From: Candidatus Saccharimonadota bacterium
GTDB lineage: Bacteria; Patescibacteriota; Saccharimonadia; Saccharimonadales; UBA4665
Direction of reading: 5' to 3'
NCBI GenBank assembly: GCA_003516025.1
Contig: CP023991.1
Coordinates: 360,001 to 392,000, forward strand
DNA: 32,000 nt
In this document: positions 8,992 to 31,650 of the stretch, one piece after another
How the letters are laid out: each line of letters opens with the position of its first letter
Numbering within the stretch: position 1 is the stretch's first letter
Program-made: the position numbers and the translations under genes
The notes under the pieces: model-generated
What the model saw: only the letters and a program-made list of their open reading frames with translations
What the model was told of the DNA's origin: nothing
Databases searched by the model: none

Positions 8992-9011
8992 CTTTCAACT
9001 CCGGTCAGGCG

Positions 9012-9017
9012 TATAAT
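9012..9017 (+). promoter_or_regulatory. Candidate -10 box (TATAAT within GTATAATAGT), 8 nt before the uvrC ATG
   Basis: Same 10-mer as upstream of trhO. No Shine-Dalgarno sequence fits between the box and the ATG at 9026. Confidence 0.4.
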
Positions 9018-9025
9018 AGTTATGA

Positions 9026-15126: not shown

Positions 15127-15213
15127 GCGGATGTGGTGAAATTGGTATACACGCTAGTTTCAGGTACTAGTGGGCGCAAGCTCGTGGAGGTTCAAGTCCT
15201 CTCATCCGCACCA
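15127..15213 (+). tRNA. tRNA-Leu (anticodon CAG), type II with long variable arm, CCA encoded
   Basis: Acceptor GCGGATG/CATCCGC, anticodon arm CTAGT-TTCAGGT-ACTAG, T arm GGAGG-TTCAAGT-CCTCT, 87 nt. Confidence 0.93.
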
Positions 15214-15501: not shown

Positions 15502-17088
15502 ATGGCATCACGATTACCAACTCCCGGTTCAGACGATGGTACTTGGGGTGATATCCTCAATGACTTCTTAAGCCAAGCCCATAACACCGATGGTTCACTT
15601 AAGCCACTCACACAGTCACAAATTCAGAATCTCACAGCCGACCTGGCCGTTAAGGCCGGCACTGCAGATCTCAACGCTAAAGTCAGTAATAGCGATCTTG
15701 ATACTAAAACTGCTGCACTAGTTGGTAACGCAAGCAGTACCACAAATAGCGCCCTGAGGGCGGCCTACGTCAATCTTGATAATCTGCCTGTGAATCCGCG
15801 CGACAATCCAGCCTGGAACCCAGCGCCTGGAGCGGATAATGGTGCGATGGTACAAGTAATCCTGGACAACTTATATGCTAACGGAGGAGGAACGCTGTAC
15901 CTGAATACGGTACTCAACACAAGCGTGGCATTAACTACGGGTAGCGGCGTTCGTATTATCGGTTCAAATCCGTTTGTTTCAGTTATTCGAGCACTGTCCG
16001 CCTTTCCAGCTAACACGCCAGTTGTCCGACTGGATCGCTCGGGTGGTGTTACCCCCGAGTTTTATAACCGATTAGAATCCATTACCATTGACTGTAACGA
16101 TATCGCTGATACTGGTGTTTACTCACAAAGTTGTCAAGAACAGGGCGGGCTGATTGATTGCCGGATCGTTAAGTGGCGTTCTAAAGGCATTCATTTAAAA
16201 GGCTCAGCAGTTATGCACTGCAATATGGATGACCTATGGGTTTACTCTTCTACGCAGGCCAGTCCTACTGGAGCGGTAGCCTTGACTATGGAGCAACTTG
16301 GTGGCACGGTCTCGGTACGTCGAGGCTCATTTATTAACACGGCAAATACTGCTGCATCTCAGGCGAATGGTGTTTATGTGCTTGGTTCCACGGCCGTCGC
16401 ATTCGATACTGTGCACTTAGAAGGGGGATCGATTGTATTAGATAACTCTAACGCGTCCGTCACCTCGGCCACCGGTCATTCCACGGTGCCTTCTTTAATT
16501 CGAGCAACTACGGCCACGAGCAGTGTCGAATGGAAGAACATTAGCCGGATGGGCTCGACGTATACGATCGAGGACAGCACTTCTGGAACCGCGCAATCGT
16601 ATACGGCAACGTCTGGTTCAACGGGTAACGGCGGGCTGGTAATCGGAACTAACGCCACTCTCGCCGATCTGCGGGTGATTTCGTCGGCAGGTAAATCGGG
16701 CACCGTTTCAATAACTGACTGGCTATCTCCAACCCTGGCGATTCTGGCGCGAGTACTGCGCTCGGGCAACATTGAATCGCGCGGCGACCGCTTCGTTCGA
16801 CGTAATGATGGCACTGGTGGCTACACTATTTCTAAATTAGACGGCGCAGTCCAGTGGGAAATGCTATGGGACAATTCAACCAGTAACTGGCTGCTTAGGA
16901 ATGCAGCAGGTACGAACGCTCTCGCTGTTACGCAAGCTGGGGCGATGAAGTTGTCCGTGTTTGTTTCGGCTAGCAGACCGTCGGCGGCGTCTTCTGGGCA
17001 AGGCGCAATGATTTTTGACTCGACGTTGAACAAGCCTGTGTGGTCTGACGGGACTAATTGGCGTGATGCAAGTGGTACTATCGTCTAA
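15502..17088 (+). CDS. Tailspike/tail-fibre-like protein with predicted right-handed parallel beta-helix (pectin-lyase fold)
   Basis: 528-aa ORF. The N-terminal LPTPGSDDGTWGDILNDFL motif and C-terminal GAMIFDSTLNKPVWSDGTNWRDASG motif resemble, from memory, phage tail-fibre / pectate-lyase-superfamily proteins. The central part is G/N/S/T-rich and repetitive, like PbH1 repeats. No signal peptide is visible. Confidence 0.5.
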   Translation: MASRLPTPGSDDGTWGDILNDFLSQAHNTDGSLKPLTQSQIQNLTADLAVKAGTADLNAKVSNSDLDTKTAALVGNASSTTNSALRAAYVNLDNLPVNPRDNPAWNPAPGADNGAMVQVILDNLYANGGGTLYLNTVLNTSVALTTGSGVRIIGSNPFVSVIRALSAFPANTPVVRLDRSGGVTPEFYNRLESITIDCNDIADTGVYSQSCQEQGGLIDCRIVKWRSKGIHLKGSAVMHCNMDDLWVYSSTQASPTGAVALTMEQLGGTVSVRRGSFINTANTAASQANGVYVLGSTAVAFDTVHLEGGSIVLDNSNASVTSATGHSTVPSLIRATTATSSVEWKNISRMGSTYTIEDSTSGTAQSYTATSGSTGNGGLVIGTNATLADLRVISSAGKSGTVSITDWLSPTLAILARVLRSGNIESRGDRFVRRNDGTGGYTISKLDGAVQWEMLWDNSTSNWLLRNAAGTNALAVTQAGAMKLSVFVSASRPSAASSGQGAMIFDSTLNKPVWSDGTNWRDASGTIV

Positions 17089-19009: not shown

Positions 19010-19096
19010 GCGGATGTGGTGAAATTGGTATACACGCTACCTTGAGGTGGTAGTGGGCGCAAGCTCGTGGAGGTTCAAGTCCTCTCATCCGCACCA
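19010..19096 (+). tRNA. tRNA-Leu (anticodon GAG), type II, CCA encoded
   Basis: Identical to the tRNA at 15127-15213 except for the anticodon arm (CTACC-TTGAGGT-GGTAG). Confidence 0.93.
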
Positions 19097-19137: not shown

Positions 19138-19214
19138 GGGTGATTAGCTCAGTTGGCTAGAGCATCTCGTTTACACCGAGAGGGTCGGGGGTTCGAGTCC
19201 CTCATCACCCACCA
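19138..19214 (+). tRNA. tRNA-Val (anticodon TAC), CCA encoded
   Basis: Acceptor GGGTGAT/ATCACCC, D arm AGCTCAGTTGGCTAGAGC, anticodon arm TCTCG-TTTACAC-CGAGA, T arm GGGGGTTCGAGTCCC, 77 nt. Confidence 0.93.
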
Positions 19215-19221
19215 AAACAAG

Positions 19222-19250
19222 AAGGTTCCGCAAGGAGCCTTTTTGTTTTG
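19222..19250 (+). terminator. Rho-independent terminator after tRNA-Val
   Basis: AAGGTTCC-GCAA-GGAGCCTT (8-bp stem with one G-U pair, tetraloop) followed by TTTTGTTTTG. Confidence 0.8.
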
Positions 19251-19363
19251 GTTTACACTTTTCGCTGTGTACAGCTCGTCAGCATGACTTTCCCCGGATG
19301 GAGCTTAAGGTATTCATGGAAGTGTATCGACAGGTAATTCTTAGGTATGGTTGTTTGGTGGTG

Positions 19364-19397
19364 CCGCGGTGCGGTCAAGGTTCTGACCGCACCGCGG
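19364..19397 (-). terminator. GC-rich hairpin downstream of the SPFH gene (putative terminator without a U-tract)
   Basis: Perfect 13-bp inverted repeat CCGCGGTGCGGTC-aaggttct-GACCGCACCGCGG, 29 nt beyond the stop codon at 19426-19428. Confidence 0.5.
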
Positions 19398-19425
19398 ACC
19401 GGGGTAGTTCAGTGGTTCCGTCGGC

Positions 19426-20346
19426 TCAGCGCGGGGTGTTGGTCCCGGTGCTGGGGAGTACGAGCGCCGACTGCGAGCCAGGCCAGCAGGTGAAGCCGGC
19501 AGGCGGGGCCAGGTTCTTGTTGACCATCTTGTCCAGGATGTCCATGCACTGGCTGACCAGCACGTTGGGGTCGTTGGACACCGAAGCGGCCAGAGCAGCG
19601 TTGGCGGCAGCCTGGGCGGTGGCGGTCAGTTCGGCCTGCTGGGCGATGCGGGTCTGCGCGATCTGCGACTGCAGGGCGTTGACGCGCTCGTCGGTGTTGG
19701 GGTCCAGGTCGACCAGCGTGACGAGCACGTCGATGGCCTCGATCTGATCTCCGATCTTGGTGCCCACCTCCTTGGTCGTGTTCTCGGACAGCACCGCCAG
19801 GCTGGGTGCGGTGGGGTTGCCCTCCTCGTCGACGCCGAGCGGGTCGTAGTCGTCGAAGGTGGCGGTCAGCGCGGCACCGAGCTGGCGGGTCACCAGGTTC
19901 CTGCGGATGTCGTCCAGTTCACGGTGGTCCTGGTAGAGCGTGTCCGCCGCGTCCGTCAGGATGCGCCAGCTGATCGACACGTCGATGCAGGCGGTTGCCT
20001 GGCCGGTGATGCGGACCTTGAAGCAGTCCTTCTCGCCGTTGTGGACGTCGGTCTGCTTGGCGGCGTCGAGCTCGGCGATCTTGTTCCAGGGCAGGATCCA
20101 GTACGGACCGTTCGACATGGTGCCGACCGGGCGACTGAACGAGACCTCGACGCCGACCGTCTTTGTGGGCACGGTGTTGAACGACGCGTTCGCGGTGAAG
20201 GCGACGCTTGCCAGCAGCAGCACGAGCGAGATGTTCCGCACGATGCGGGATTCCCTGGGCCGACTGCGGCGGGTCGCGATCCAGCCGAGTAGCAGGATCA
20301 AGAAGAGCACGAAGGCGATGATCGCCAGGATGAAGGAAGGGGGCAT
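19426..20346 (-). CDS. SPFH / band-7 (prohibitin-flotillin-like) domain membrane protein
   Basis: 306-aa ORF. N-terminal TM (FILAIIAFVLFLILLLGWI), then an SPFH-like core (VPTKTVGVEVSFSRPVG...GPYWILPWNKIAELD...) and an Ala/Gln-rich coiled-coil tail (QSQIAQTRIAQQAELTATAQAAANAALAA). AGGAG lies 8 nt upstream of the ATG. Confidence 0.7.
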   Translation of the reverse strand: MPPSFILAIIAFVLFLILLLGWIATRRSRPRESRIVRNISLVLLLASVAFTANASFNTVPTKTVGVEVSFSRPVGTMSNGPYWILPWNKIAELDAAKQTDVHNGEKDCFKVRITGQATACIDVSISWRILTDAADTLYQDHRELDDIRRNLVTRQLGAALTATFDDYDPLGVDEEGNPTAPSLAVLSENTTKEVGTKIGDQIEAIDVLVTLVDLDPNTDERVNALQSQIAQTRIAQQAELTATAQAAANAALAASVSNDPNVLVSQCMDILDKMVNKNLAPPAGFTCWPGSQSALVLPSTGTNTPR

Positions 20347-20388
20347 GTGATGCTCCTGTAGATTGTGGGCGGGGCACAGAACTGAAAT

Positions 20389-20434
20389 CCAGTAGTGCTT
20401 AACAAGCTCATAAAAGCACGCTAAGCACTACTGG
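20389..20434. promoter_or_regulatory. Perfect 13-bp inverted repeat in the AT-rich leader of the SPFH gene (candidate operator or RNA hairpin)
   Basis: CCAGTAGTGCTTA-20 nt-TAAGCACTACTGG, 43-88 nt upstream of the start codon at 20346. Confidence 0.5.
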
Positions 20435-20768
20435 AAGAAACAAAAATATAAGAATTACGCTGTCAAAGTGCTTTGGAGTAATATAACTCAACAAAACCGT
20501 AAAATTATATAATAAACAATAAAAATATGCAACTATCCTAAAAGCTCAAACATGTTGAGCGCTTGGGGTAATGCCGGGTCCGTTTGCTCTCCAAGTTGGA
20601 GAAAACATACGGACCCGGCGGTGGGCGGTGGACGGTGCAGGCGGGGAACTCGAAGTTCCACCATGTGTGCCTGGGGGCGCCCTGGATGAGCGCCCGGGCA
20701 CGGTACCTGGCATGTTCACTGAAAATCCTTCCTGTTTGAGGGGAGTGAGACTGCGGGTTGCCGGCTTC

Positions 20769-21806
20769 TCAGACAAGTCTGCTCTGGAGAACGGCGTGCA
20801 CCTCTTCGGCGTGCGGGATGTACTTGACGCGCTGGATCTTCTTCTCCTCTTCTTGTTGCAGGAGGGTAGCGATCCGGAACGTGCCGTACTTCAGGGCCTT
20901 GTCGGTGGTCTTCTCCTCGAGGTCGATGCTCTTGATGACCGATCGGACGAACGGCTGATCACTCGAGTTGATGAAACACCAGGCCCAGGCCGGCGGCATC
21001 GTGGTCACGAAAATCTTGAACTTCGTGACGGCGAATACCGTGGATTCCCAGGCCGTGATCCGCAGGCGGATCATGAACACGGCGAGCAGCAGTAGGATGA
21101 CGCAGAAGCGCCAGACGACCGACCAGAGCAGCGGCGGCACCGACACGAAGAATAGCCCCATAACCGCGAAGGCCAGCAGCCAGAACAAGCTGAAGGCTGC
21201 GATCACGCACGGCGGAACGAGCCGCTTCAGAAGGACGATCTTGTGCTTGCGGGTGATGCACTCGATGATGTCGTCCTGTTCGACGATCTCGCGTCCGTTG
21301 TTGTCGGTTCTGCGCCGGGGCGCCAGCTTGGTGCGGAAGCGGTCCACGATGTCGTCGGGTGTGTCCCACTTGCGTTCCACGACGACCTCGAGCTTGTCTG
21401 CGTCCGGCTGGTTGCGGCGGTGCTCGGTGGCGGCACGCCGGAGGTAGAACCAGATCAGGCAGGTGTAGACCAGCCAGCTGATACTTCCGGTGATGACTAG
21501 CACTTGCGCGGGAAGATAGATCAGCCCCGTAAGAAAGCCGACCGCCAGCATCATGCCGAAGCCTGCCGGTACGGCGATCAACAGCGGATGCTTCCCCCAC
21601 TGGAGGTAGCGTGGCTCTTGAGGCTTTTTCTCCTTCGGAACCACCATGCCGGCGACGGCAGCTGCCGGTAGGGGTGCGGTGTCGTCGGGGCGGATCGGCT
21701 CGACCGGCTTGTCGGCCTGGCCTGCCGCCTGCTCACGGGACTGCATACGTGCGGCCACTGATGCTCGCGGATCGGAAGGCGGACGAAACCACTGGCTGTC
21801 GGGCAT
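20769..21806 (-). CDS. Polytopic membrane protein with C-terminal bacterial PH (bPH/YdbS-YdbT-like) domain
   Basis: 345-aa ORF. P/A-rich cytoplasmic N-terminus, two TM hairpins, and a C-terminal segment (WESTVFAVTKFKIFVTT...IKSIDLEE...KYGTFRIATL...VKYIPHAEEVHAVL) that resembles bPH domains. GGAG lies 9 nt upstream of the ATG. Confidence 0.55.
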   Translation of the reverse strand: MPDSQWFRPPSDPRASVAARMQSREQAAGQADKPVEPIRPDDTAPLPAAAVAGMVVPKEKKPQEPRYLQWGKHPLLIAVPAGFGMMLAVGFLTGLIYLPAQVLVITGSISWLVYTCLIWFYLRRAATEHRRNQPDADKLEVVVERKWDTPDDIVDRFRTKLAPRRRTDNNGREIVEQDDIIECITRKHKIVLLKRLVPPCVIAAFSLFWLLAFAVMGLFFVSVPPLLWSVVWRFCVILLLLAVFMIRLRITAWESTVFAVTKFKIFVTTMPPAWAWCFINSSDQPFVRSVIKSIDLEEKTTDKALKYGTFRIATLLQQEEEKKIQRVKYIPHAEEVHAVLQSRLV

Positions 21807-21969
21807 GTCTCAACTCCATTCTGTGAAGGAACATTGTCTCTACGGTACTTCCGGAGACGGTGCCTTATTTATATCAATCTATAAGATTTTTGGCTAGCAT
21901 TTAAATATATGACATAGTACACTTATACAAATTATTAGAAAGCTGGTAAAAAATACTTTATTAAGACAC

Positions 21970-22203
21970 TTAAGAATATAAGTTTGCAAATCGTTTATTG
22001 TTCGATTTCAATACTGATTCCTCTATTTCTTGGTCTTTAATTACCCGTGATCGCATCAGCATTGAAACCGGACAGAAAATCCGGCCTTGCTGCTCGCCGT
22101 CCAGTTTTATTACTGTCGAAGGCTTGTAGCCGCGAGGAAAACGTACGTTAACAGTTTCATCGGTAAAATAGAATCTTTTACATCGTTCTTCAGTATGTCC
22201 CAT
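21970..22203 (-). CDS. Hypothetical small protein (77 aa) encoded in an AT-rich patch inside the island
   Basis: Open for 77 codons from ATG 22203 in sequence that looks below 40% GC, where stop codons should be frequent. No SD and no family recognised. The start lies only 18 nt from the divergent ParA-like ATG. Confidence 0.3.
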   Translation of the reverse strand: MGHTEERCKRFYFTDETVNVRFPRGYKPSTVIKLDGEQQGRIFCPVSMLMRSRVIKDQEIEESVLKSNNKRFANLYS

Positions 22204-22220
22204 CACTGAAAGGGGGAACC

Positions 22221-23486
22221 ATGGTATCGGGATCATCCGACTCCGACCGTGGGTGGCAAGGGAGAGATCTGGGCAGACCGCGCCAGATAACCGCAGACAG
22301 CACCATCCAGACCCAAGGGGGAACGAACGCAATGGACAGTGAGTCCGAACGTCAGGTACCACCCGGCGGCTACACAGGCCTGCCGAAGCTCGAGTGGAGG
22401 ATGCGCCGGCTGATCGACCGTGACAAGGCCGTGCCGCCGAAGCCCAGCAAGAAGCAGCGCCGGCAGCTCGATCTCGAGGAGCGTCAGCTCAGCGAGAAGC
22501 AGGCCGCCGACGCGGAGTCGCAGAAGAGGGACCAGCTGGAAGCTGAGTCCATCGAGCGCATCCTGCAACTGGCCGACGAGGTCAAGCACGCCACGTGCGT
22601 GTCGGTCAACTCCAAGGGGAATGGCGGCACCACCACGACGCTGGTCAACATGGCCTGCGTCCTGGGCTGGCTGACCCGCACCCTGATCGTGGTCGTCGAT
22701 GGCAACCCCGCCGAAGGAACCTGCGCAGCTCTGCTGGGCAAGGACCACGGCGCGACCATCAATGTCCAGCAGGTGTCCAGCCAGCTGGAAGCTCTTCGCC
22801 GCAACGCGCGCACCTTCATCGAGGGTGCACGGCCCAACCGTTGGAACGTCCGCACTGTTGCGGCGCTCTCGACGGTGGCTGCGGAGAACAACCCGCTGCT
22901 CGAACCTGACAAGGTCCGGGATCTGATCCAGGCCTGCCAGGAGCACTTCGAGTTCGTCTTCGTCGACACGCCCAACGTGCTGACGAGCGAGGCGGGGCTG
23001 GCGGCTGTTCGCACTGGCGACGTGCTGGTGTTCCCGGCCAACCGGCAGACCAAGTTCTCGCTGCGGCAGCTCGGAACCTCGATGCAGTCGCTCCGCGAGA
23101 ACGGCCTGAAGGACAAGGTCGAGAACTCAGTGGTCGTCATCACCAACCTCGAACCCGAGGATGAGCTGGACGGCTACCGCAAGTTCATGAACCGCACCAA
23201 GATGGACGACTCGGTCATCCAGACCTACGACCAGGACTTCCAGGGCGTGTTCATGGGTGTGCCACACGACGATGTCATCGCACGTGACGATGTCGTCGAT
23301 GTCGAGGCCTGGAGCCAGGAGACGCGTCAGGCGTACTACGACCTGATCATCGCCTGGCTCGAGCAGGTCCTCAAGGAGCGCGAGCACCACGACAGCATGC
23401 CCGTTCCGCCGGAACTGGCAGCACAGAACGGCCACTCCGACAACCGGAGCATGGTCACCACGCACTATCCAGGGGGAGAGTCATGA
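22221..23486 (+). CDS. ParA/MinD/CpaE-like protein with degenerate deviant Walker A and a charged N-terminal extension
   Basis: 421-aa ORF. SKGNGGTTTT (22611-22640) occupies the position of the canonical deviant Walker A motif KGGxGK[ST], as in the typical xKGGvGKTT form; a ParA-like Walker B region follows (FEFVFVDTPNV...GDVLVFP). GGGGGAAC lies upstream of both ATG 22221 and the alternative ATG 22332. Confidence 0.65.
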   Translation: MVSGSSDSDRGWQGRDLGRPRQITADSTIQTQGGTNAMDSESERQVPPGGYTGLPKLEWRMRRLIDRDKAVPPKPSKKQRRQLDLEERQLSEKQAADAESQKRDQLEAESIERILQLADEVKHATCVSVNSKGNGGTTTTLVNMACVLGWLTRTLIVVVDGNPAEGTCAALLGKDHGATINVQQVSSQLEALRRNARTFIEGARPNRWNVRTVAALSTVAAENNPLLEPDKVRDLIQACQEHFEFVFVDTPNVLTSEAGLAAVRTGDVLVFPANRQTKFSLRQLGTSMQSLRENGLKDKVENSVVVITNLEPEDELDGYRKFMNRTKMDDSVIQTYDQDFQGVFMGVPHDDVIARDDVVDVEAWSQETRQAYYDLIIAWLEQVLKEREHHDSMPVPPELAAQNGHSDNRSMVTTHYPGGES

Positions 23487-23866
23487 AGGAGCTCTACGCG
23501 CAAGCCGTCGTGAACGTCTACGACGTTCTGGCAGTCGAAGCGCCGGCCACGCCAGCGCCCGGAGGCAACATCCAGGACTACGTGCCAACCAGCCCGAACT
23601 ACGGTCCGTGGAGCGGGTTGGTCCAGCCGGTGACCTTCGTCGGAGGCATCCTGCTTGGGCTGGCGGCGTTGATCTCGCTGCTGTTCCTGTTCTGGAACCT
23701 GTTCAAGCTGGCCGTCTCACAGGACGAGGACAAGGACCGCGGCATCATGAGGTCGATCAAGAAGAACCTCATCATCTTCGTGATCTGCGGCTTCGCCAGC
23801 ACTGTCCTGCTCTCGTTCTTCTTCGGCCTGCTCCAGCAGGTGGTCAACTCGTTCGGCTCGTCCTGA
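23483..23866 (+). CDS. Small two-TM T4SS-associated membrane protein (VirB2/VirB3-like topology)
   Basis: 127-aa ORF. Two hydrophobic helices (VTFVGGILLGLAALISLLFLFW and LIIFVICGFASTVLLSFFFGLL) around a charged loop. ATGA overlap with the upstream gene. Confidence 0.45.
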   Translation: MKELYAQAVVNVYDVLAVEAPATPAPGGNIQDYVPTSPNYGPWSGLVQPVTFVGGILLGLAALISLLFLFWNLFKLAVSQDEDKDRGIMRSIKKNLIIFVICGFASTVLLSFFFGLLQQVVNSFGSS

Positions 23867-23965
23867 CCGGGACGAGCAACGCTGCTACGCGGCTGCTCCC
23901 GGTTCTGGCAACTTTGCCGGGGGCAGCCCGCGTGGCCTGACATCTATCCGTTAGGGAGGTGAATC

Positions 23966-25057
23966 ATGGCAAATCCGGCATGTTGGATCCTGCCAGGGCT
24001 TTGTTCGAATGGACAAGTCGCTGGTGAGGGTAGCTGGCTCGGTGACTTGCTCTCGTTGTTTGACAGCGATGCCGCCGGCGACACCCTGCGTAGTGCTCTC
24101 GAGACCGTTCAGTCGACCCGACAGTTCGACCTCGGACTGGTGTCGTTCGTCACTACGTACCAGCAGCTGTTCGGCCTGATGCTGATCTTGTCGGTGCTAC
24201 TGTTCTCCTGGACGCTGCTTCGCCTGGCTATCAGCAACAGTAACGGCGAAGAAAGCGTTGCTGGCCTGTTGGCGCCGTTCAAGATCTTCGTTTTCGGCTC
24301 ATTCCTGCTCGTAGCGGGGTCTTTTATCCGTTACCTGGGTGAGCTGGCGACGTGGATCGCGAAACAGTTCCTGCGGGAACAGAACTGGGTCGACGACGTC
24401 ACCCGCGGCTTTTCGTTCGGCGGTTTCTGGGTCCGCATCATCGGCAAGGTGCTCAGCGGACTGCTTCGGTTGGAGATCGTTCCACTGGAGTTGTGGGTGC
24501 CGCTGTTCATCCTGATGGGTTTGATTACCTATAGTTTGACCGCTTTCCGGTCGAACTACGTCATGGGTAAGCCGAGCCGCTGGATGTGGGCTCTGTTACT
24601 GACCGCGCTGACCCTCAAGCCGGCACTGACGCTGTACTTCGGTATCGGCGGCGGGCTCATCATGAACAGTGATGCTCCTGAGGGCGACAAGTCGGTTATG
24701 GTGCTGGCGCTGCTGGCTACTTCGCTTTTTCTCTGGATGTTCGTCTTCATGGCGTTCAACAAGAGGATTCAGGCGTATGTAGACAACAGGGTCCAGGTCC
24801 GGGGTGACGTGCGCAATCGTCCTTCCGGAACTGGTCGCCAACAGGTGGAGGTCAACCGGACGTTCAACGCCCGGCAGTCCAACATCAACCGGTCGGCGCA
24901 GGGCAAGCACGGCCTACGGTCGGCACGACATGCGACCACGGACGCGTCACTGGGGGCCCTCGCCAAGAAGGCAGCCTCGAGTGGACATCCTGCGGTCGGC
25001 ACCACGGTCGTCATCGTCCACGCGTTCTTCAAGGGACGACGCAAGAAAAGCCCGTAG
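23966..25057 (+). CDS. Polytopic membrane protein, VirB6/TrbL-like T4SS channel component
   Basis: 363-aa ORF with about 6 TM segments and a basic C-terminal tail. GGAGGTG SD 5 nt upstream. Its position between the small TM protein and the VirB3/VirB4-like genes matches Gram-positive T4SS order. Confidence 0.5.
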   Translation: MANPACWILPGLCSNGQVAGEGSWLGDLLSLFDSDAAGDTLRSALETVQSTRQFDLGLVSFVTTYQQLFGLMLILSVLLFSWTLLRLAISNSNGEESVAGLLAPFKIFVFGSFLLVAGSFIRYLGELATWIAKQFLREQNWVDDVTRGFSFGGFWVRIIGKVLSGLLRLEIVPLELWVPLFILMGLITYSLTAFRSNYVMGKPSRWMWALLLTALTLKPALTLYFGIGGGLIMNSDAPEGDKSVMVLALLATSLFLWMFVFMAFNKRIQAYVDNRVQVRGDVRNRPSGTGRQQVEVNRTFNARQSNINRSAQGKHGLRSARHATTDASLGALAKKAASSGHPAVGTTVVIVHAFFKGRRKKSP

Positions 25058-25086
25058 GAATCACTGCGACTTTCTGAGGAGGTGAA

Positions 25087-26673
25087 ATGACTGGAGAAAG
25101 TCAGGATCTGACCCCTTTTCGCCTGGATAGTCCGGGTGTTCGGAAGGGTCGGATGTTCCGCGACGCGGGAATGGCTCAGATCGCATGGATGGTCACGATG
25201 TTTCTGGCTGTCTGTGTATCAGGCGTCCTGCATCTGCTGGTACCGGCTCTCGTGGCGGCAGCGCTGTTCTTTTTGGCGCTGCCTGGCGAGGACGGACCCT
25301 TCTTCAACCTGCCGCTGACATGGTGGCACGGATGGAGGATCAAGCGCCACGACAATGTTGTCTGCGAGGTAGATGACGCGGGACAGGCTGTTGGCGGGGC
25401 TATGCCTGAACTACTCGACGACTTGTTCGTCGATGACGTTTTAGGGCAGTTCGCCACCCTGTACGACGAATCGGGAGACACTGACACTGTCTACTGGAGC
25501 ACGGACGGGTGGGAGTACGCCAACGCTGACATGCCTCAGCGCCATGCCGCTCAGATGCAGGAAGCCGCCGCACTCAAGACGGCTATCTCGCAAACGGACG
25601 ACAACATCGCCTACGGGATGATGAATGGCCGGAGGCAGTTCGATCCGTCCGAGTGGGTTGAGGATCTGCGGCAGAATTACCTGCATGAAGACTTTGAGGA
25701 TGACTCGGGGTTGGACGCCGGTGACCGCAGGGCCAAGGCCAACCTGGACAAGGTGTTCTCTGACATGGTGGTGCGCAGACGTTCCAAGGGCCTGGCGCTC
25801 ATCGCCGTGACTGTCCCCCGGCCCCCTGAATGGGCAAAGCTGGTCGACAGTCCTGAGATATTCACCGTGGATCAGCTACGCCGATCGTCGCTCTACCGTG
25901 TGCTCAGCTCACTGGAGCGAGGTCTAGAGGAGGCTGGTTTCAAAGGTCTGAAGTTGTTTGGCAGGGAACAGTTGTTCCGGTACCTGTTCGGGGCGTGGAA
26001 CGTTCACTACCTGACGGGCGAGACGATTGCCCGCAACGAGACCTCTGGGTACTATCAGCTTCCCGGTGCCGACCCGACCGACCCGCCGCAGCTTGGCGAG
26101 GATGGTCGTCTCGTGCACGTGCGGCAGCCGTTCCCCCACCGAGTCAAGGTGGTTCGGAGCGGCCGCAGTGGCAGACGGTACGACACATTGCAGATGGATG
26201 ATGGAAGCTACCACTTCGTGGTGGTCGTCCGGAATTTCCGACGCAAGAGTGGCCTGCCCGGCGCTACCTACCCGCTGATCGTTGGACCGCACAGTCCTTG
26301 GATCATGCACACCCAGAACTGCAACACCGCTTCACAGCAGCTTGACAAGTTCCTGTTGCGAAAGAGGCGGAATCTGCTGATCGGTTGGTTCTCCAACCGG
26401 CGTGGTCTGGGAACGATGTACGAAGAACTCGCTGATCGTGAGCGGGTCGAATCCGAGAGGGGAGCGATCGACAAGATCCACATCTCAGGCTCCAAGCCTA
26501 TCCGTTCTGATCATCGCTTCACGGGAAGCGCGACATCACTGGAGGAACTTGGCAAGGTCTACGACGACCTGGTCGCGACTCTGCGACAAGAAGAACTGAG
26601 TTTCTACCGCGTGAAAGGACGTGCCAGATTGTTTCCGGCATTCCTGTTGGCCGTACTTGGCCCGCGACTGTAG
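25087..26673 (+). CDS. T4SS protein with a VirB3/PrgI-like N-terminal TM hairpin fused to a large cytoplasmic domain (resembles, from memory, actinomycete SCO6880-family proteins)
   Basis: 528-aa ORF. TM hairpin (IAWMVTMFLAVCVSGVLHLLVPALVAAALFFLAL), no P-loop. GGAGGTG SD. Lies immediately upstream of the VirB4-type ATPase. Confidence 0.45.
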   Translation: MTGESQDLTPFRLDSPGVRKGRMFRDAGMAQIAWMVTMFLAVCVSGVLHLLVPALVAAALFFLALPGEDGPFFNLPLTWWHGWRIKRHDNVVCEVDDAGQAVGGAMPELLDDLFVDDVLGQFATLYDESGDTDTVYWSTDGWEYANADMPQRHAAQMQEAAALKTAISQTDDNIAYGMMNGRRQFDPSEWVEDLRQNYLHEDFEDDSGLDAGDRRAKANLDKVFSDMVVRRRSKGLALIAVTVPRPPEWAKLVDSPEIFTVDQLRRSSLYRVLSSLERGLEEAGFKGLKLFGREQLFRYLFGAWNVHYLTGETIARNETSGYYQLPGADPTDPPQLGEDGRLVHVRQPFPHRVKVVRSGRSGRRYDTLQMDDGSYHFVVVVRNFRRKSGLPGATYPLIVGPHSPWIMHTQNCNTASQQLDKFLLRKRRNLLIGWFSNRRGLGTMYEELADRERVESERGAIDKIHISGSKPIRSDHRFTGSATSLEELGKVYDDLVATLRQEELSFYRVKGRARLFPAFLLAVLGPRL

Positions 26674-26706
26674 AAGCTCCTACCGATGACACTACGACGT
26701 GCGCCC

Positions 26707-26745
26707 GCTACGGTGGTGGTTGTTCCACTAAACCACCACCGTAGC
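26707..26745 (+). terminator. Perfect 15-bp stem hairpin after the 528-aa gene (terminator/attenuator-like, no U-tract)
   Basis: GCTACGGTGGTGGTT-gttccacta-AACCACCACCGTAGC, 34 nt after the stop codon. Followed by the palindrome AGTTGAAGTTCAACT and a T5 run. Confidence 0.5.
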
Positions 26746-26890
26746 AAGCACTTCAGACAAGCAGTTGAAGTTCAACTTTTTGTCCGAAATGCCACAGGGG
26801 CATTCGAACGTTAACAACTGAATTACTCCTCCCTGTGCACTTCGAGCCGACTTACATCATACCGACGACACACGAGAGCAGGTGAAAGAT

Positions 26891-28330
26891 ATGGCAAGGT
26901 CAGTACCGACGCGGGGCAGAAGTCACGACACGACAGTTGACGACACCACGCAGTTCGGGCCCACCCACACCACTGGTGGTGCCCAGAAGCGCGGAATACC
27001 ACTCTTCGTCAACGCCGACACCAACGAACCTGAGCCATTCGACCCCGCGGAACTGAAGGCTGAAGGCCGGATCAACTCCACCGTCCTTGGTGTTCTGGGG
27101 AACAAGGGTCACGGCAAGACAGCCACCTCAATCGCTATCGCACTGCGCTTCAGGTGGCGGCGTGCAGGCAACCGCAGGATGTCAATCTGTATCAATGACA
27201 TCAGGCGCAACAATGCCCGGCCGGAGTACGAGAAGCTGTGTGAATACCTTGGCGTTGAAGAGGTGTCGCTCGGCAACTTCCGGCTGAACATGCTGTCGCA
27301 GGATCTGAAGCTGAAGCCGTCGGAGCTTCTGACAATGGTTGCCCGCAGCTTGCAGTTCGAACTGGCGCGGCAACTGACTACCAAGGAGCTCAAGGCTCTT
27401 CGGTACTCGTTGAAGATGGTCCTCGAATTCTTTGAAGACGATGCCGAGCTGTCCACGCTCATGGCATGCATGCGTCGAATGAATGAGGGGATTGCCAGGC
27501 GCTTCCAGAATCAGATCGAGCAAGGCAAGGGTGACAAGTACGCTCGTCACCTCGCTAGGCTTGAAAGGGTTCTGGACACGAAGCCCCAGATCACTCCGGG
27601 ACTACTGGAAACGGCGCTTGAACTGGCTGACACCATCGAGAACCTTCTTGATGGCGAGTATGGCGAAATGTTCGGCGGGGATCACTCGCTGGCAAGCGTC
27701 ATGCATACGAACAAGGGACTCGTGGCGTTCGACTTTTCCGAACTGTCGGACGACGCGCTGACCCAGGTCCTGGCGATGATGTGGCAGGTCAAAACTTCGG
27801 CCATGCGCCGCGGCGACCACGACCTGTACTATGACATCGAGATTCACGACGAGAGTTACACGTTGTGGCGCAATCTCGAGTACGCCAGGTCGATGCACAA
27901 GTTCCTGAAGCAGGTCCGCGCGACGGGGACGTTCATCGTCATGAACACGCACCGCCTCAGTGACTACGAGACGGTAGGCAGTGAGAGCAGTGAGCAGTAC
28001 AAGCTGGCCACCAACATGATCGATGACATCGACATGTGGCTGCTTGGACGGCACACGCCCAGTGCTGCGGAAGACACCGCCAAGCGCCTCGACCTGACGG
28101 ACGAGGAAAAGCAGCGGTTGCTTCACCTGGAGCGCGGCGTCTGGGGACTGAAGATCGGCTCCGAGCCTGTTCGTTGGGTTTACATCGACCTGACGGACGA
28201 TGAAGCCGAAGTGACGTACTCCGACGACGCCAACCGCGAGAACACCGCTGAAGGCATGAACGAAATGCTCGCACGGGCGCTCGATGAAGAAGCTCAACAA
28301 GCCGCCCAGGAAGACCTGGCCATGGCTTAG
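26891..28330 (+). CDS. VirB4/TrsE-type T4SS ATPase (C-terminal ATPase-domain-sized)
   Basis: Walker A GNKGHGKT (27101-27121), Walker B-like IEIHDESYTLW (D-E at 27848-27853), downstream FIVMNTHRLSD motif. AGGTGA SD before ATG 26891; the ORF track starts at GTG 26882. Confidence 0.7.
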   Translation: MARSVPTRGRSHDTTVDDTTQFGPTHTTGGAQKRGIPLFVNADTNEPEPFDPAELKAEGRINSTVLGVLGNKGHGKTATSIAIALRFRWRRAGNRRMSICINDIRRNNARPEYEKLCEYLGVEEVSLGNFRLNMLSQDLKLKPSELLTMVARSLQFELARQLTTKELKALRYSLKMVLEFFEDDAELSTLMACMRRMNEGIARRFQNQIEQGKGDKYARHLARLERVLDTKPQITPGLLETALELADTIENLLDGEYGEMFGGDHSLASVMHTNKGLVAFDFSELSDDALTQVLAMMWQVKTSAMRRGDHDLYYDIEIHDESYTLWRNLEYARSMHKFLKQVRATGTFIVMNTHRLSDYETVGSESSEQYKLATNMIDDIDMWLLGRHTPSAAEDTAKRLDLTDEEKQRLLHLERGVWGLKIGSEPVRWVYIDLTDDEAEVTYSDDANRENTAEGMNEMLARALDEEAQQAAQEDLAMA

Positions 28331-28356
28331 CTACCGTGACATGAGGGGGAACTAAG

Positions 28357-28998
28357 GTGTCACGATCCAGGAAACGTCGATCGACTATCAGGTCGAGCCG
28401 CAGACGGCAGAATGGGCGAAAGCTGCTCTACTTCGTGCTGGCAGCACTACTGATAGCCGCGCTGGTGATGTTGCTGTCCTCAAACGACAGGATTTCATCC
28501 CCACCCGATGATCAGGCGACATCATCCACGTCCGCGCCCAACGAGGAACCGACGGCAAGCCAGCCTTCGGAGCCAACACCCGACGTGGAGCAGTTGAAGG
28601 ACAGTCTCGTCCGTTTCACGGAGGTCTACTACCGTATCCTGCCTTCGGACGGGCCGGATACTCGCAGGTCAGCCGTCGAACAACTGGGCATACCCATGTC
28701 CGAGACGGCGATCGACAGCATGGACTTCACGGTTTATGCCTACGAAGATCCCTTTGGCGCTTCAGATCGCTCTGAGGTGACTGAACAGGGAACGGTTGAC
28801 CTGCCGGCGATGCAGATACTGTCGGAGCTGGACGATGGAAAGCTGTTGTACGTAACAGCTCCCGTTGTACTGACTTCGACAGGACCAGACGGGCACACCG
28901 AAACCAGCACTTTCCTGGTGGGGACTGTCTGGCAGTGGGTGTCCGATGATGGCCGATGGGCTATGACCGCGTTTGGAGAGGAGGGATCATTGCAATGA
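28357..28998 (+). CDS. Membrane-anchored T4SS accessory protein (VirB8/TcpC-like topology)
   Basis: 213-aa ORF. Basic N-terminus, one TM (LLYFVLAALLIAALVMLL), S/T/P-rich linker, ~130-aa globular domain. GTG start preceded by GGGGGA. Confidence 0.4.
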   Translation: MSRSRKRRSTIRSSRRRQNGRKLLYFVLAALLIAALVMLLSSNDRISSPPDDQATSSTSAPNEEPTASQPSEPTPDVEQLKDSLVRFTEVYYRILPSDGPDTRRSAVEQLGIPMSETAIDSMDFTVYAYEDPFGASDRSEVTEQGTVDLPAMQILSELDDGKLLYVTAPVVLTSTGPDGHTETSTFLVGTVWQWVSDDGRWAMTAFGEEGSLQ

Positions 28999-30164
28999 AA
29001 AGCGCTGTGTCGGCTGTTATCGCCCTCATACTGCTTCCCATAGCACTGGTTGCTTCCTTTGCGATCGGTCTGACCGTTGGTGTTGGCGCGACGTCAGGTG
29101 ACGCTTCGTGTGTACCTGCTATCGCCGCTGACGCCAGTCCTCCACCGCCCGCGACCAGTAAAACGGCCGCCGGGACCGACCAGGAGGCCATCTTCCAGGC
29201 AGTTGTCGCCAAAGCCAATGGTGACAACAAGGTAATCCTGTCCATGATGCAAGGTTCATGGCTGGAAAGCCGCTGGAACCGCAATGCCTCTGACGGTGAA
29301 GCCTACGGGCCTTACCAGATCCAGATGCCCGGCGTCGTACATCCTGACGTCAGCATCGCTGAGGCTAAGGACCCCGTCTTCTCGACGAACTACATGTACG
29401 AGGAGTATGCCGAGAAGGCTCAGGCGGTCGATCCGAACCTCTGGATCACCGATCCGCAGTCAGCCGCGGAACTGACGGCGTATCGGGCGGAGCGGCCGAA
29501 GTACATCTACAGTGACAGCCGAAGTCAGGGGCCGGCGAAGGTTGCCGAAGCCTTTCGTGCCGCTGCGGACCTCTTGCAGGCCCACGGTATCTCGCTCGAC
29601 TTCGGTCAAACGGCTGCCGCACCGGCCGCGCCTGATGTACGGACGGTCGCTGCCCGTTCAGAGCCGGTCCAGCAGTGTGCTGCGGACGAACAGAAAGGAA
29701 AGGAGGCAGATGCTGCGCAGGTAAGCCTGGTTTCCAGTGGCTGGACTAAGCCGGTCACGGCTGACGGTGTGCGCTGCACCTCCGGTTTCGGGCCGCGCTG
29801 GAGTACGCAGCACAACGGCGTAGATCTCGCCAATGGTCGACTCGGCACGCCGATCTATGCCGCCGCCGGTGGCACGGTTATCGCGTCGGGGCCTGCCAGT
29901 GGCTTTGGTTGGTGGATCGTCATCGACCATGGCAATGGTATCGTCACGATCTACGGGCACATGAATGGCAAAGACCTCCTGGTCTCTGTCGGAGATGTCG
30001 TCACGCCTGGTAAGCCGATCTCGCGCATCGGCAATGAAGGTCAGTCTACTGGCCCTCATCTGCACTTTGGTGTCAAGGAAGGCGGCATCAGCGGCAAGAG
30101 CATCGACCCCGAGAAGTTCATGGCTGAGCGAGGTGTTGCCTTGTGCGACGGCTCCGCTGCTTAG
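28995..30164 (+). CDS. Bifunctional cell-wall hydrolase: lytic-transglycosylase-like domain plus M23 metallopeptidase (VirB1/PrgK/TcpG analogue)
   Basis: ATG 28995 forms an ATGA overlap with the upstream stop, and GGAGGG lies 9 nt upstream. N-terminal TM. SLT-like LESRWNRNASDGEAYGPYQIQ. M23 motifs HNGVDLA, IDHGNGIVTIYGH, GPHLHFGV. Confidence 0.8.
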   Translation: MKSAVSAVIALILLPIALVASFAIGLTVGVGATSGDASCVPAIAADASPPPPATSKTAAGTDQEAIFQAVVAKANGDNKVILSMMQGSWLESRWNRNASDGEAYGPYQIQMPGVVHPDVSIAEAKDPVFSTNYMYEEYAEKAQAVDPNLWITDPQSAAELTAYRAERPKYIYSDSRSQGPAKVAEAFRAAADLLQAHGISLDFGQTAAAPAAPDVRTVAARSEPVQQCAADEQKGKEADAAQVSLVSSGWTKPVTADGVRCTSGFGPRWSTQHNGVDLANGRLGTPIYAAAGGTVIASGPASGFGWWIVIDHGNGIVTIYGHMNGKDLLVSVGDVVTPGKPISRIGNEGQSTGPHLHFGVKEGGISGKSIDPEKFMAERGVALCDGSAA

Positions 30165-30520
30165 GCAGGCCTGAACTTCCATCACCCCGAGAGGATCCAC
30201 TCGCCAACAAAACAAAAACTTCATATGGGTTTGACGGCCATACGGTATGCCGGAAACGGTAAACATTGTATGGCCGCGCGCGGTTCTCATCCAGGAATTA
30301 CCTGGAGCTGCGCTAGAGGAATGTTTTAGAGTTCCTCGCCTGCAAAAACACCAACGGCCGCCGGGTCCGTGAATGTTCTCCTCTGGAGAGCGTTTAAAAC
30401 CCGGCAACACCCGAAGGATTGAAACACTACTAACAAGTTTAAATTTTTCGGATGTTGTAACATGATATGCCAAGCGCCTGTTCCGCATTAAGGGCTTGCG
30501 CTGAAGCGCGTATTAGTCCA

Positions 30521-30529
30521 TGCTATATT
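30521..30529 (+). promoter_or_regulatory. Candidate extended -10 box (TGCTATATT), 5 nt before the rpoD ATG at 30535
   Basis: CATGCTATATT parallels CATGCTACAAT at 12667-12677. Implies a leaderless rpoD mRNA if 30535 is the true start. Confidence 0.35.
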
Positions 30530-30534
30530 CCATT

Positions 30535-31650
30535 ATGAGTGAACACGCGACAATGCCCGATGCCGATGAACCTTTGGCAGCCCATGATTATATGCTGGAA
30601 AGCGAACGTGACGAGCAAGAAGCGGGGGAAGAATCGTACGAGTCTGTAGTGTCTACTGACTTGGTGCGGGTTTACCTCCGTGAGATTGGTAAAACGGCAT
30701 TACTGAGCGCACCGGAAGAGGTTGACCTGGCTAAGCGTATAGAGGCCGGGTTATTCGCCGGCAAGATAATCGATTACGCGCAATCCGGCAGCGTAGTCAG
30801 TGAAGATACGGCTGAACTCGCGCCAACTATGGATCGAGTGCTTGACGGCTCCGGCTCTTCGCCGAAACAAACGTTGAGGGATCTTCAGGCGGTTAAGCGT
30901 GATGGTGAGCAGGCGTTAGACCATATGGTACGGGCTAACTTACGCCTGGTAGTATCCCAGGCCAAGCGCTACACCGGGCGGGGGCTTAGCTTCCTCGACC
31001 TTATCCAAGAAGGAAATGTCGGCATGATGCACGCCGTAGAAAAATTTGATTACACCAAAGGCTTCAAATTCAGCACCTATGCCACCTGGTGGATTAAGCA
31101 ATCAATTAGCCGTGCTATAGGTGACAGGGCGCGCTTGATACGGCTGCCAGTCCATCTGCATGAAAAAATCGTCAAACAGGGCCGTATTGTACGTGAACTC
31201 GAGCAGACCGGGCAAACCGTAACCGATGAGATGATCGCTGAAGCAATGGGGGGAATTACAGTCGAAAAAGTGCGCGAGTATCGTGACTTGGCGCGTGATC
31301 CAGTCAGTCTGGACCAGCCAGTTAGCAGTGGTACTTCAGGCCGGCTCTATAATGAGTCCTATGTCGGGGATTTTATCGCCGATAAAGTAACGCCGTCCGC
31401 AGAAGCGGAGCATCATCTTACTGAGATGCAGGATGCGATCGGCGGCTTGCTGACGTTATTGCCCAATGACCGGTTACGCCTGATAATCACGCTTCGTCAT
31501 GGCTTGGACGGCGAGAAGCCGCGCACGCTTGATGCTATCGGTGAGCAGATTGGCCTAACCAGAGAACGTGTCCGGCAACTGGAAAAGATAGCCATGAAAT
31601 CACTGCAGGCACATGCTACCAACAAAGGTATGCATGACCTGCTGCAGTAA
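30535..31650 (+). CDS. rpoD: RNA polymerase primary-like sigma-70 factor (RpoD/SigA group)
   Basis: Region 1.2 (DLVRVYLREIGKTALLSAPEEV), region 2 (NLRLVVSQAKRY...LDLIQEGNVGMMHAVEKFDYTKGFKFSTYATWWIKQSISRAI), regions 3 and 4 (TLDAIGEQIGLTRERVRQLEKIAMKSL). The alternative start is ATG 30520. Confidence 0.93.
   Translation: MSEHATMPDADEPLAAHDYMLESERDEQEAGEESYESVVSTDLVRVYLREIGKTALLSAPEEVDLAKRIEAGLFAGKIIDYAQSGSVVSEDTAELAPTMDRVLDGSGSSPKQTLRDLQAVKRDGEQALDHMVRANLRLVVSQAKRYTGRGLSFLDLIQEGNVGMMHAVEKFDYTKGFKFSTYATWWIKQSISRAIGDRARLIRLPVHLHEKIVKQGRIVRELEQTGQTVTDEMIAEAMGGITVEKVREYRDLARDPVSLDQPVSSGTSGRLYNESYVGDFIADKVTPSAEAEHHLTEMQDAIGGLLTLLPNDRLRLIITLRHGLDGEKPRTLDAIGEQIGLTRERVRQLEKIAMKSLQAHATNKGMHDLLQ

Follow-up and report, generated by a model that had tools for sequence, protein, structure and literature searches.

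A compact, relaxase-free cassette resembling actinobacterial type IV secretion systems, with a structured RNA before its ATPase gene, in a Saccharibacteria chromosome

Saccharibacteria and other Patescibacteria live attached to host bacteria, and the passage of material between the two cells is an open question. One type IV secretion system (T4SS) is known to be essential for this way of life. This T4SS of Saccharibacteria, which has VirB2-like pilins and no recognisable coupling or relaxase proteins, is required for the epibiotic growth of Southlakia epibionticum (PMC10633639). In a survey of 3,035 Patescibacteria genomes, VirB4 was found in 80%, forming a clade nested in the mating-pair formation (MPF) class MPF_FATA and almost always without a relaxase (PMC12102498). 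Relaxase-less T4SSs in Saccharibacteria are therefore already published (Wang 2023; Quinonero-Coronel 2025), and the general phenomenon is not new. Here we describe a different, seven-gene cassette at positions 22221-30164 of a 32,000-nucleotide stretch (the window) from a Candidatus Saccharimonadota bacterium (GenBank assembly GCA_003516025.1, contig CP023991.1, positions 360,001 to 392,000). With reasonable though not full confidence, we read it as a functional T4SS-like machine of the cell envelope, compact and resident in the chromosome, which belongs to the actinobacterial SCO6880/Cmd lineage and is distinct from the canonical Patescibacteria T4SS. What appears to be new is this distinct actinobacterial-type variant, which was not found described in the literature searched, and an RNA motif within it.

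The canonical Patescibacteria T4SS is thought to act at the epibiont-host interface. In S. epibionticum its locus (SEML1_0006-0019) adjoins dnaA and encodes a 612-aa VirB4 (KEGG K12063, with TraC/TraG/DUF87-named structural neighbours), a 293-aa protein, a PrgI-family VirB3 (PF12666), a 998-aa membrane protein and a VirB6-like one of 1088 aa, six pilins, three of which were scored against PF18895 at 1e-11 to 1e-15, and hydrolases of 643 and 1113 aa. A TrsD-like protein is among the parts of the canonical cluster. The cassette in the window shares with this system its host group, a monoderm conjugation ancestry, a VirB2-like pilin, which is unusual for monoderms, wall hydrolases downstream of the ATPase, and a locus without a relaxase or a type IV coupling protein (T4CP). 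In contrast, it shows no PF12666 match, no pilin array, no giant VirB6 and no very large hydrolase, and is not near dnaA; it has one weakly pilin-like gene and a VirB6-like protein of 363 aa. The cassette is absent from S. epibionticum, whose proteome has one VirB4-fold protein and one ParA (Soj).

A closer counterpart is found in Actinobacteria, in the SCO6880-type T4SSs of Streptomyces plasmids and integrative and conjugative elements (ICEs), for example pSMg1-2, SCO6871-6884 and the SLP2 transfer genes. The Streptomyces locus runs from small proteins, one of them weakly pilin-like, through a ~620-aa SCO6881-like membrane protein and a ~508-aa protein of the SCO6880 family (1e-146) to the ATPase and the T4CP. 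In one of the loci compared (L006) a 1866-aa TrwC relaxase lies nearby, and the cluster hydrolase combines SLT and M23 domains there or is of the NlpC/P60 type (pSMg1-2, NZ_CP011666). The cassette resembles these systems in its stand-alone VirB4 C-terminal ATPase placed after a ~510-aa transmembrane (TM) hairpin protein and a polytopic protein, in the small pilin-like protein upstream, and in having a bifunctional hydrolase in the cluster. In the actinobacterial systems the ATPase gene is immediately followed by that of a T4CP, and a TrwC-type relaxase is present; the cassette has neither, and a 213-aa gene comes after its ATPase gene; it adds a ParA/TadZ-like gene and an RNA spacer, and its VirB6-like protein is about half the size. 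Outside the ATPase, similarity is at or under the limit of detection, and in pairwise BLASTP of the window proteins against a Streptomyces T4SS the M23 domain alone matched. Judging from gene order and sequence, the cassette appears to correspond to the actinobacterial SCO6880-type T4SS, but with relaxase and T4CP missing.

This lineage has a domesticated member. The cmdABCDEF genes of Streptomyces coelicolor (SCO4126-4131) are chromosomal, co-transcribed and relaxase-free, and are paralogous to SCO6878/6880/6881 and the SLP2 transfer genes; CmdB is VirB4-like, CmdC and CmdD resemble SCO6880 and SCO6881, and the mutants are defective in sporulation and chromosome segregation with normal plasmid transfer (PMC2782261). 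They show that an actinobacterial T4SS lineage can take up a non-conjugative role; the likeness to our cassette is one of description, in another phylum, and no ParA-like gene, hydrolase or RNA leader is reported for cmd (PMC2782261). With monoderm MPF_FATA systems (pCF10 Prg, pIP501 Tra, the Mycoplasma ICE) the cassette shares a parts list of VirB4, VirB6-, VirB3- and VirB8-like proteins and a bifunctional hydrolase. There VirB4 is full-length and is accompanied by a T4CP, a relaxase and adhesins, with no ParA-like gene, and the cassette matches these systems far under curated cut-offs. The ComB system of Helicobacter pylori, which the initial annotation had offered as a precedent, works without relaxase or T4CP and stands as a loose functional analogy; it is a diderm VirB2-B10 machine with an outer-membrane core, and no similarity to the cassette in sequence or architecture was seen. 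DNA uptake in Saccharibacteria is attributed to type IV pili and ComEC (PMC10633639).

The cassette (Table 1) comprises seven co-directional genes on the + strand at the positions first assigned to them, and all of its open reading frames (ORFs) are intact, as had been claimed, both in the window and in the related loci read. The gene order is ParA-like, pilin-like, polytopic, a protein of ~500-550 aa, a spacer, the ATPase, a protein of ~130-210 aa and the hydrolase. A strong GGAGG-type Shine-Dalgarno (SD) site lies 5' of all seven genes, and the ATGA overlaps described at 23483 and 28995 are real. The tight coupling proposed on these grounds holds with one exception, a conserved non-coding spacer of 208 bp between the 528-aa gene and the ATPase gene. 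The ATPase most likely starts at ATG 26891, which gives the 479-aa form of the public record; the hydrolase ORF extends mechanically from 28956, and its SD site and public gene calls favour a start at 28995.

The ATPase is the component by which the cassette is assigned to the T4SSs. An AF2 model built on an alignment of 13 sequences (pLDDT 80.6) finds as its best fold in the Protein Data Bank (PDB) the VirB4 C-terminal domain (4AG6/4AG5; E=9e-12 to 3e-10, TM-score 0.70), with four VirB4 chains ranking above DndH-C, HerA, TrwB and TrwK. The family profile matches Thermoanaerobacter VirB4 (4ag5) at 5e-4, the window protein matches NCBIfam VirB4_plasma at 0.003, far under the curated cut-off, and a Streptomyces homologue matches TIGR00929 (VirB4_CagE) over positions 437-754 at 3e-18. 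The Walker A (GHGKT) and Walker B (HDE) motifs do not vary within the family, and hydropathy gives the ATPase no TM helix. The predicted structure and the profiles together show the cassette motor to be a VirB4-type ATPase that consists of the C-terminal domain only. With the pilin-like matches and the M23 domain of the hydrolase (1e-27), they support the minimal MPF core proposed at the outset, that is, a monoderm-type T4SS core. The Pfam searches that had been suggested as a check returned Peptidase_M23 and a weak T4SS_pilin match; the window ATPase had no match at E<=0.1, the standard VirB4/AAA_10/TraG models included, and there was none to PrgI (PF12666). A Tad/Flp pilus would call for other parts: T2SS_E and TadB/TadC gave no match in Pfam or NCBIfam, the motor is of the VirB4/HerA/FtsK type, and a TadA/GspE-type ATPase, TadB/C and a prepilin peptidase are absent from the cassette.

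The actinobacterial affinity is also seen with the ATPase. Its nearest homologues outside its own clade are Streptomyces proteins named 'type VI secretion protein' (phmmer E=7e-8 to 5e-6, ~25% identity), and tblastn against 72,556 PLSDB plasmids hit 39 records, all of them actinobacterial (34 Streptomyces, 2 Kitasatospora, and 1 each from Nocardiopsis, Rhodococcus and Leifsonia). A HMMER scan of 1.84 billion cluster representatives returned 1961 relatives at E<=1e-3, 246 of them at E<=1e-30. Neighbour-joining of the 150 best places the window protein in a clade whose 67 representatives have the amino-acid composition of mid- or low-GC organisms and which includes the proteins of L012, L016 and L017; 41 of the other 82 have an actinobacterial-type composition. 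The ATPase family is thus old and diverse in Saccharibacteria-like organisms. A pattern-based scan of GTDB species representatives found one relative, in a Saccharibacteria metagenome-assembled genome (MAG), and a scan of metagenome contigs found 3 loci; these scans used few exact peptide patterns and so give no measure of rarity. An early impression that the cassette is rare or patchy, drawn from ~10 word-index matches, was softened by the 1961 representatives.

Upstream of the ATPase, the 127-aa protein matches Pfam T4SS_pilin at 7.7e-4 and the NCBIfam model of Mbov_0395, a pilin-like conjugal transfer protein of the Mycoplasma ICE, at 1.4e-5, and aligns with a Streptomyces 109-aa protein at E=0.0016 (hhalign); all of its pilin scores lie under curated cut-offs. 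The 363-aa polytopic protein has no Pfam, NCBIfam or PDB sequence match, and its hhalign match to the Streptomyces SCO6881-like protein covers TM segments over 29 columns only. The 528-aa protein has an N-terminal TM hairpin (residues 27-69) and a large soluble part, and in place and size it equals the SCO6880_fam protein of the Streptomyces T4SS. Its family aligns weakly with the SCO6880 protein over 84 collinear C-terminal columns (hhalign E=0.031), and one member each matches, also weakly, VirB4_plasma (E=0.1) and SCO6880_fam (E=0.4). A model of the 528-aa protein from 3 sequences gave no usable fold (pLDDT 34), and a word-indexed homology search with alignment found only 3 proteins of its family. 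The 213-aa protein, kept in all cassettes, has a single TM helix (19-46) as its N-terminal anchor, a Ser/Pro linker and a globular domain of ~130 aa. Neither it nor the 528-aa protein has a significant Pfam or NCBIfam match, and the profiles of the 528-aa, 363-aa and 213-aa families found nothing meaningful among PDB sequences, the 213-aa family having no profile match to solved structures. The 528-aa protein may be the equivalent of the VirB4 N-terminal domain. A 'Rosetta-stone' comparison of its family with the N-terminal regions of P0117 and P0089, two longer homologues of the ATPase, yielded nothing significant. Of the labels first given to the seven genes, VirB4 and M23 stand on matches of their own and SLT on a motif and one relative's weak Pfam match; VirB6-, VirB3/VirB4N- and VirB8-like (the last for what had been called an accessory protein) are suggested by topology and position.

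The first gene of the cassette encodes a ParA-like protein that matches Pfam AAA_31 at 9e-4, MinD and ParA at ~1e-3 (NCBIfam), and CpaE_hom_Actino/Ssd (TIGR03815, septum site-determining protein) at 1e-4. Its P-loop (residues ~131-139) reads KGNGGTTT in the window as against KGG[SA]xK[ST] or GKAGKT in relatives, the lysine being lost in this genome only among the relatives compared, and its gene has a dN/dS of 0.48-0.60 on the window lineage as against 0.25 between L008 and L011. The window protein may be an inactive or repurposed ATPase. A ParA/MinD-like first gene, here with an atypical P-loop, recalls TadZ/CpaE of Tad pili. TadZ proteins also have an atypical P-loop.

The spacer before the ATPase gene is present in every cassette copy (155-300 bp), and conservation of its nucleotides can be seen between copies that share only 30-60% identity in their proteins. 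It contains an element of ~145 nt that RNAalifold folds into two adjacent hairpins. In the window, hairpin 1 is a perfect 15-bp stem (26707-26721/26731-26745) and hairpin 2 a long interrupted stem (~26750-26800), after which an invariant ..TCG..C.TTAACA tail follows. Across 11 sequences, 92% of the paired cells are standard pairs (33-45% in slid controls, mean 74% in shuffles), and 25 of the 30 pairs show compensatory changes, compared with 2-11 in slid controls and a level that none of 500 shuffles reached. With 8 loci a covariance model, R1, was built, and it locates the element immediately before the ATPase gene in 13/13 cassettes searched, five of the matched loci lying outside the building set (L013, 88 bits; L017, 43; L016, 36; L014, 28; L015, 20). 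R1 scores 143 bits on the + strand and 30 bits on the - strand, and several G-U pairs are conserved, which indicates that the element is an RNA and belongs to the strand of the operon. The possibility of a small conserved ORF in the spacer was rejected, since base pairs are conserved and reading frames are not. The homologous Streptomyces systems are without the RNA spacer, the two genes overlapping there. Rfam has no match, and the motif appears to be new. We infer that it is a cis-acting leader or processing element that sets ATPase expression, and it offers a defined, testable candidate regulator.

The last gene encodes a peptidoglycan hydrolase with one N-terminal anchor. In its N-domain, common to the family, the Glu of LESRWN is invariant and a G..Q motif (YGxYQIQ) is present; one relative matches Pfam SLT_2 at 1.3e-4 and SLT at 2.4e-3, and the sole PDB match is the lytic transglycosylase MltC (E=1.1), aligned on this motif. 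The N-domain is probably SLT-like. While this domain is constant, the catalytic C-domain is exchanged from one locus to another: the window, L012 and L016 have M23, and it is of the NlpC/P60(+CHAP) type in L003, L004, L008 and L011, VanY in L009, NlpC/P60 with M23 in L013, and GDSL-lipase with VanY in L017. These swaps may be an adaptation to different cell walls, which would make the exchanged wall-degrading domain a candidate determinant of host range.

The cassette order recurs in 14 Saccharibacteria-type loci. Among them, L003, L004, L005, L008, L009, L011, L012, L013, L016 and L017 show it in full, while L014 and L015, which are short contigs, carry parts of it; the ATPases of these loci are between 66% and 28% identical to that of the window. 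The comparison with the closest homologues (L008, L011) that the initial annotation had advised gave Nei-Gojobori dN/dS values of 0.19-0.23 for the 528-aa gene, 0.20-0.32 for the ATPase gene and 0.25-0.28 for the VirB6-like gene, which are rough values, since dS is 1.1-1.8 and near saturation. As these rates show, the core genes are, on sequence comparison, under purifying selection. The preference for retention over decay expressed at first is borne out by the recurring gene order, these rates and the covarying RNA in the operon.

Cassettes of this kind occupy more than one chromosomal context. In the window, L008 and L011 the cassette lies beside S11-peptidase and LemA genes. In L012 (4876-13252) and L017 (5222-15301), which share the window's uvrA, VTT, ABC, rhodanese and uvrC neighbourhood (with L25 also in L012), a divergent copy sits between uvrC and the rhodanese gene, whereas the same junction in the window is empty (35 bp, 8991-9026). 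Because synteny is shared and the uvrC-rhodanese junction is empty in one case and filled in the others, the cassette occupies alternative chromosomal sites; in L003, L004, L005 and L016 it is found in other contexts again. Wherever both flanks are long enough (L003, L004, L008, L012, L016, L017), the cassette is 2-17 GC points above both of them; L005, L009 and L011 lack one usable flank for this comparison. In the window, GC is 0.59-0.60 across 19215-30164 and 0.52 either side. This GC-rich DNA ends at 30164 with rpoD following, as had been noted, but it begins at ~19.3 kb and is wider than the seven-gene set, holding a further pair of genes on the - strand. Third codon positions account for almost all of the excess (GC3 is 0.65-0.92 within the block, as against 0.48-0.65 for housekeeping genes), GC1 and GC2 being similar. 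We see in all this signs of an accessory, movable unit, as far as sequence can give them, and movement without an integrase, by recombination after natural transformation, is a possibility. Along the operon, GC3 drops from 0.90 in the pilin-like gene to 0.65.

We regard the cassette as a retained machine and not a decaying ICE, a conclusion supported, at the level of sequence, because the order is recurrent, dN/dS is 0.2-0.3, GC is richer than in the flanks and the hydrolase domains are swapped. Most likely it would serve, on contact, to pass proteins or some other cargo from one partner to the other, epibiont or host, and not to conjugate. In such a machine, the 363-aa, 528-aa and 213-aa proteins would form a translocon in the cytoplasmic membrane around an ATPase hexamer, the 2-TM pilin-like protein would make a short conduit or fibre, and the hydrolase would open peptidoglycan, either the cell's own or that of an actinobacterial host; the ParA/TadZ-like protein would position the machine, and the RNA leader would set ATPase expression relative to the structural genes. 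A bolder version, which we put forward tentatively and think less probable than its core, is that Saccharimonadales own a second, undescribed T4SS-like cassette beside the canonical one, descended from or shared with the plasmid transfer systems of Actinobacteria, their host phylum; it would have shed T4CP and relaxase and would be a self-contained mobile seven-gene unit with its own codon usage, controlled by RNA and tuned to host walls by hydrolase swaps, and might serve as a device for host range or penetration. If true, a second accessory cassette would be a natural comparison for relaxase-free T4SS function, and it would extend the little-studied actinobacterial SCO6880/Cmd lineage beyond Actinobacteria.

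Several points weigh against the reading as a retained T4SS-like machine. What is said of expression, assembly and cargo is drawn from genes alone; the VirB6-, VirB3/VirB4N- and VirB8-like roles lack significant profile or structure support; and the dN/dS values are blurred by the near saturation of dS. The lost lysine and faster evolution of the ParA-like protein may mean that part of the cassette is degenerating here. Transfer between Actinobacteria and Saccharibacteria may have gone either way, and the clade of Saccharibacteria type runs deep, with 67 or more clusters at 50% identity. A T4CP or relaxase acting in trans is possible, as is a canonical T4SS in the same genome, the searches for all of these covering the window and the next 8 kb of a 1.0-Mb genome; indeed, Patescibacteria usually encode VirD4-like proteins far from virB4 (PMC12102498).

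This last point leads to the alternative that survives best, though we hold it to be improbable, namely that the cassette is the MPF half of a working DNA-transfer system whose T4CP and relaxase lie elsewhere in the genome. The homologous actinobacterial systems are conjugative, with the T4CP directly after the ATPase and a TrwC relaxase nearby, and varied chromosomal sites and foreign codon usage fit mobility. However, the absence of relaxase, T4CP and integrase, already remarked in the initial annotation, extends to every large ORF of the window, to the 8 kb past rpoD (which encode an S11 peptidase, LemA, an M48 peptidase and LigA) and to ~10 kb around the related loci examined, and relaxases occur in only 103 of the 3,035 Patescibacteria genomes (PMC12102498). 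No att-type direct repeats flank the GC-rich block, its tRNA end included, and no oriT-like repeats were found; the hairpin element before the ATPase gene behaves as a strand-specific RNA with G-U pairs. An inverted repeat of 33 nt (76%; 20598-20630/30349-30381) is within chance expectation; its arms sit in the intergenic regions bracketing the cassette and the divergent membrane-protein gene, the left one in a hairpin (20573-20619).

Somewhat less probable still is a role like that of Cmd, in which a domesticated T4SS relative would work for the cell that makes it, in its envelope or in cell-cycle processes such as division, budding and chromosome segregation, and not in transfer to a second cell. 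The cmd phenotypes are a precedent for this (PMC2782261), and the cassette opens with a ParA/MinD/Ssd-like protein. Yet a pilin-like protein and a secreted hydrolase that swaps domains suggest a target outside, be it the wall or another cell; S. epibionticum, the model Saccharibacterium, can grow and divide in the absence of the cassette; and the spread of the cassette across sites and genomes looks accessory.

We doubt more strongly that the cassette is a divergent copy of the canonical Patescibacteria T4SS. The phylum is the same, and a monoderm T4SS origin, a VirB2-like pilin, a hydrolase after VirB4 and the lack of relaxase and T4CP are common to both (PMC10633639; PMC12102498). Against this, architecture and protein sizes differ, a PrgI-family protein, a pilin array and a giant VirB6 all being absent; the canonical protein class is recognised by the standard Pfam VirB4/AAA_10/TraG models and the window ATPase is not, and the best relatives of this ATPase outside Saccharibacteria are actinobacterial and not of the Patescibacteria clade; and the locus is not near dnaA, S. 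epibionticum having no second VirB4-fold protein. Finally, the truncated ICE that the initial annotation had named as one option, a dead remnant landed by tRNA-Val with its integrase, relaxase and T4CP lost, is largely refuted and very improbable: the GC- and GC3-rich block does adjoin tRNA-Leu and tRNA-Val and the ParA-like gene has lost its P-loop lysine and has a raised dN/dS, but all ORFs are intact here and in related loci, core dN/dS is low, distant genomes carry the same reduced gene set at sites that have nothing in common, a pattern that decay in each of them separately would not give, att repeats are missing, intergenic gaps within the block are <=420 bp and therefore leave no space for pseudogene remnants, and a covarying RNA is maintained in the operon.

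Table 1. Coordinates of the cassette, its surroundings in the window, and the RNA element in related loci
Feature	Sequence	Position	Strand	Size and basis
ParA/MinD/TadZ-like P-loop protein	window	22221-23486	+	421 aa; weak AAA_31, CpaE_hom_Actino, MinD, ParA matches
VirB2-like pilin-like protein	window	23483-23866	+	127 aa; 2 TM helices; weak pilin profile matches
Polytopic membrane protein, VirB6 position	window	23966-25057	+	363 aa; at least 5 TM; topology and position
TM-hairpin protein, VirB3-like or possible VirB4 N-domain equivalent	window	25087-26673	+	528 aa; position, size, hairpin
Structured non-coding RNA	window	26676-26819	+	covariance model R1, covariation
VirB4-type ATPase, C-terminal motor domain	window	26891-28330 (ORF from GTG 26882)	+	479/482 aa; fold and profiles
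Bitopic anchored protein, VirB8-like position	window	28357-28998	+	213 aa; topology only
SLT-like + M23 peptidoglycan hydrolase	window	28995-30164	+	389 aa; Peptidase_M23 1.1e-27 (Pfam); secreted or anchored
SPFH/Band7 membrane protein	window	19426-20346	-	Pfam Band_7 6.6e-10; GC3 0.92; peripheral neighbour, not core
Polytopic membrane protein, divergent	window	20769-21806	-	345 aa; probable bacterial PH-like C-terminal domain
Divergent intergenic region, AT-rich	window	21807-22220	.	GC 0.377 vs ~0.6 in flanking genes; putative promoter region
tRNA-Leu	window	19010-19096		left edge of GC-rich block
tRNA-Val	window	19138-19214		left edge of GC-rich block
rpoD	window	30520-31650		follows GC-rich block
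RNA element	L003	9708-9870
RNA element	L004	9826-9974
RNA element	L005	9754-9920
RNA element	L008	8516-8676
RNA element	L009	2876-3047
RNA element	L011	6310-6458
RNA element	L012	9783-9972
RNA element	L013	2910-3081
RNA element	L014	301-461
RNA element	L015	1197-1329
RNA element	L016	9839-9974
RNA element	L017	9823-9966

Two genes on the - strand complete the GC-rich block. Homologues of the 345-aa membrane protein (23-40% identity) occupy the same place in L004, L005, L008 and L011, the L004 member matching Pfam bPH_2 at 1.6e-4, and this gene is the eighth conserved one of the closer cassettes. The Band7 gene is also found upstream of the cassette in L001/L002 and L008 and is absent at the other loci. 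Scans for promoter and terminator consensus sequences gave counts no higher than those in shuffles. The rpoD gene stands between the cassette and the S11-peptidase gene in the window only; in L008 (12147-12456) and L011 (9885-10221) the S11-peptidase gene comes directly after the hydrolase gene. In L003 (MAG CAZKIA010000001) the cassette follows tRNA-Leu(TAG), and two extra genes precede it (2161-5064), one encoding 416 aa with no match and the other 289 aa with a weak sortase match (0.0026).

The other large ORFs of the window encode UvrA, a DedA/VTT protein, L25, an ABC exporter, a rhodanese, UvrC and an S9 peptidase, and further ones a holin-like protein, SecG, SBP_bac_5, an FAD oxidase and RpoD, the rest being housekeeping or unassigned. 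UvrA has 83-93% identity to many proteins, and those with a name derive from MAGs of 'Candidatus Saccharimonadales bacterium' or 'Candidatus Saccharibacteria bacterium', except for one labelled Limnocylindrales, in agreement with a Saccharimonadales source for the contig, which measures 1,005,782 bp. A 560-aa ORF at 6388-8070 (+), with no Pfam match, an acidic low-complexity N-half, 2 TM segments and a GC of 0.57, above that of its neighbours, separates the ABC-transporter gene from the rhodanese gene. These two are direct neighbours in L012 and L017, so that the ORF has the look of a further insertion. A further ORF of 528 aa at 15502-17088 (+), rich in Ser/Thr/Asn/Gly and with no Pfam match, comes directly after tRNA-Leu(CAG) (15127-15213).

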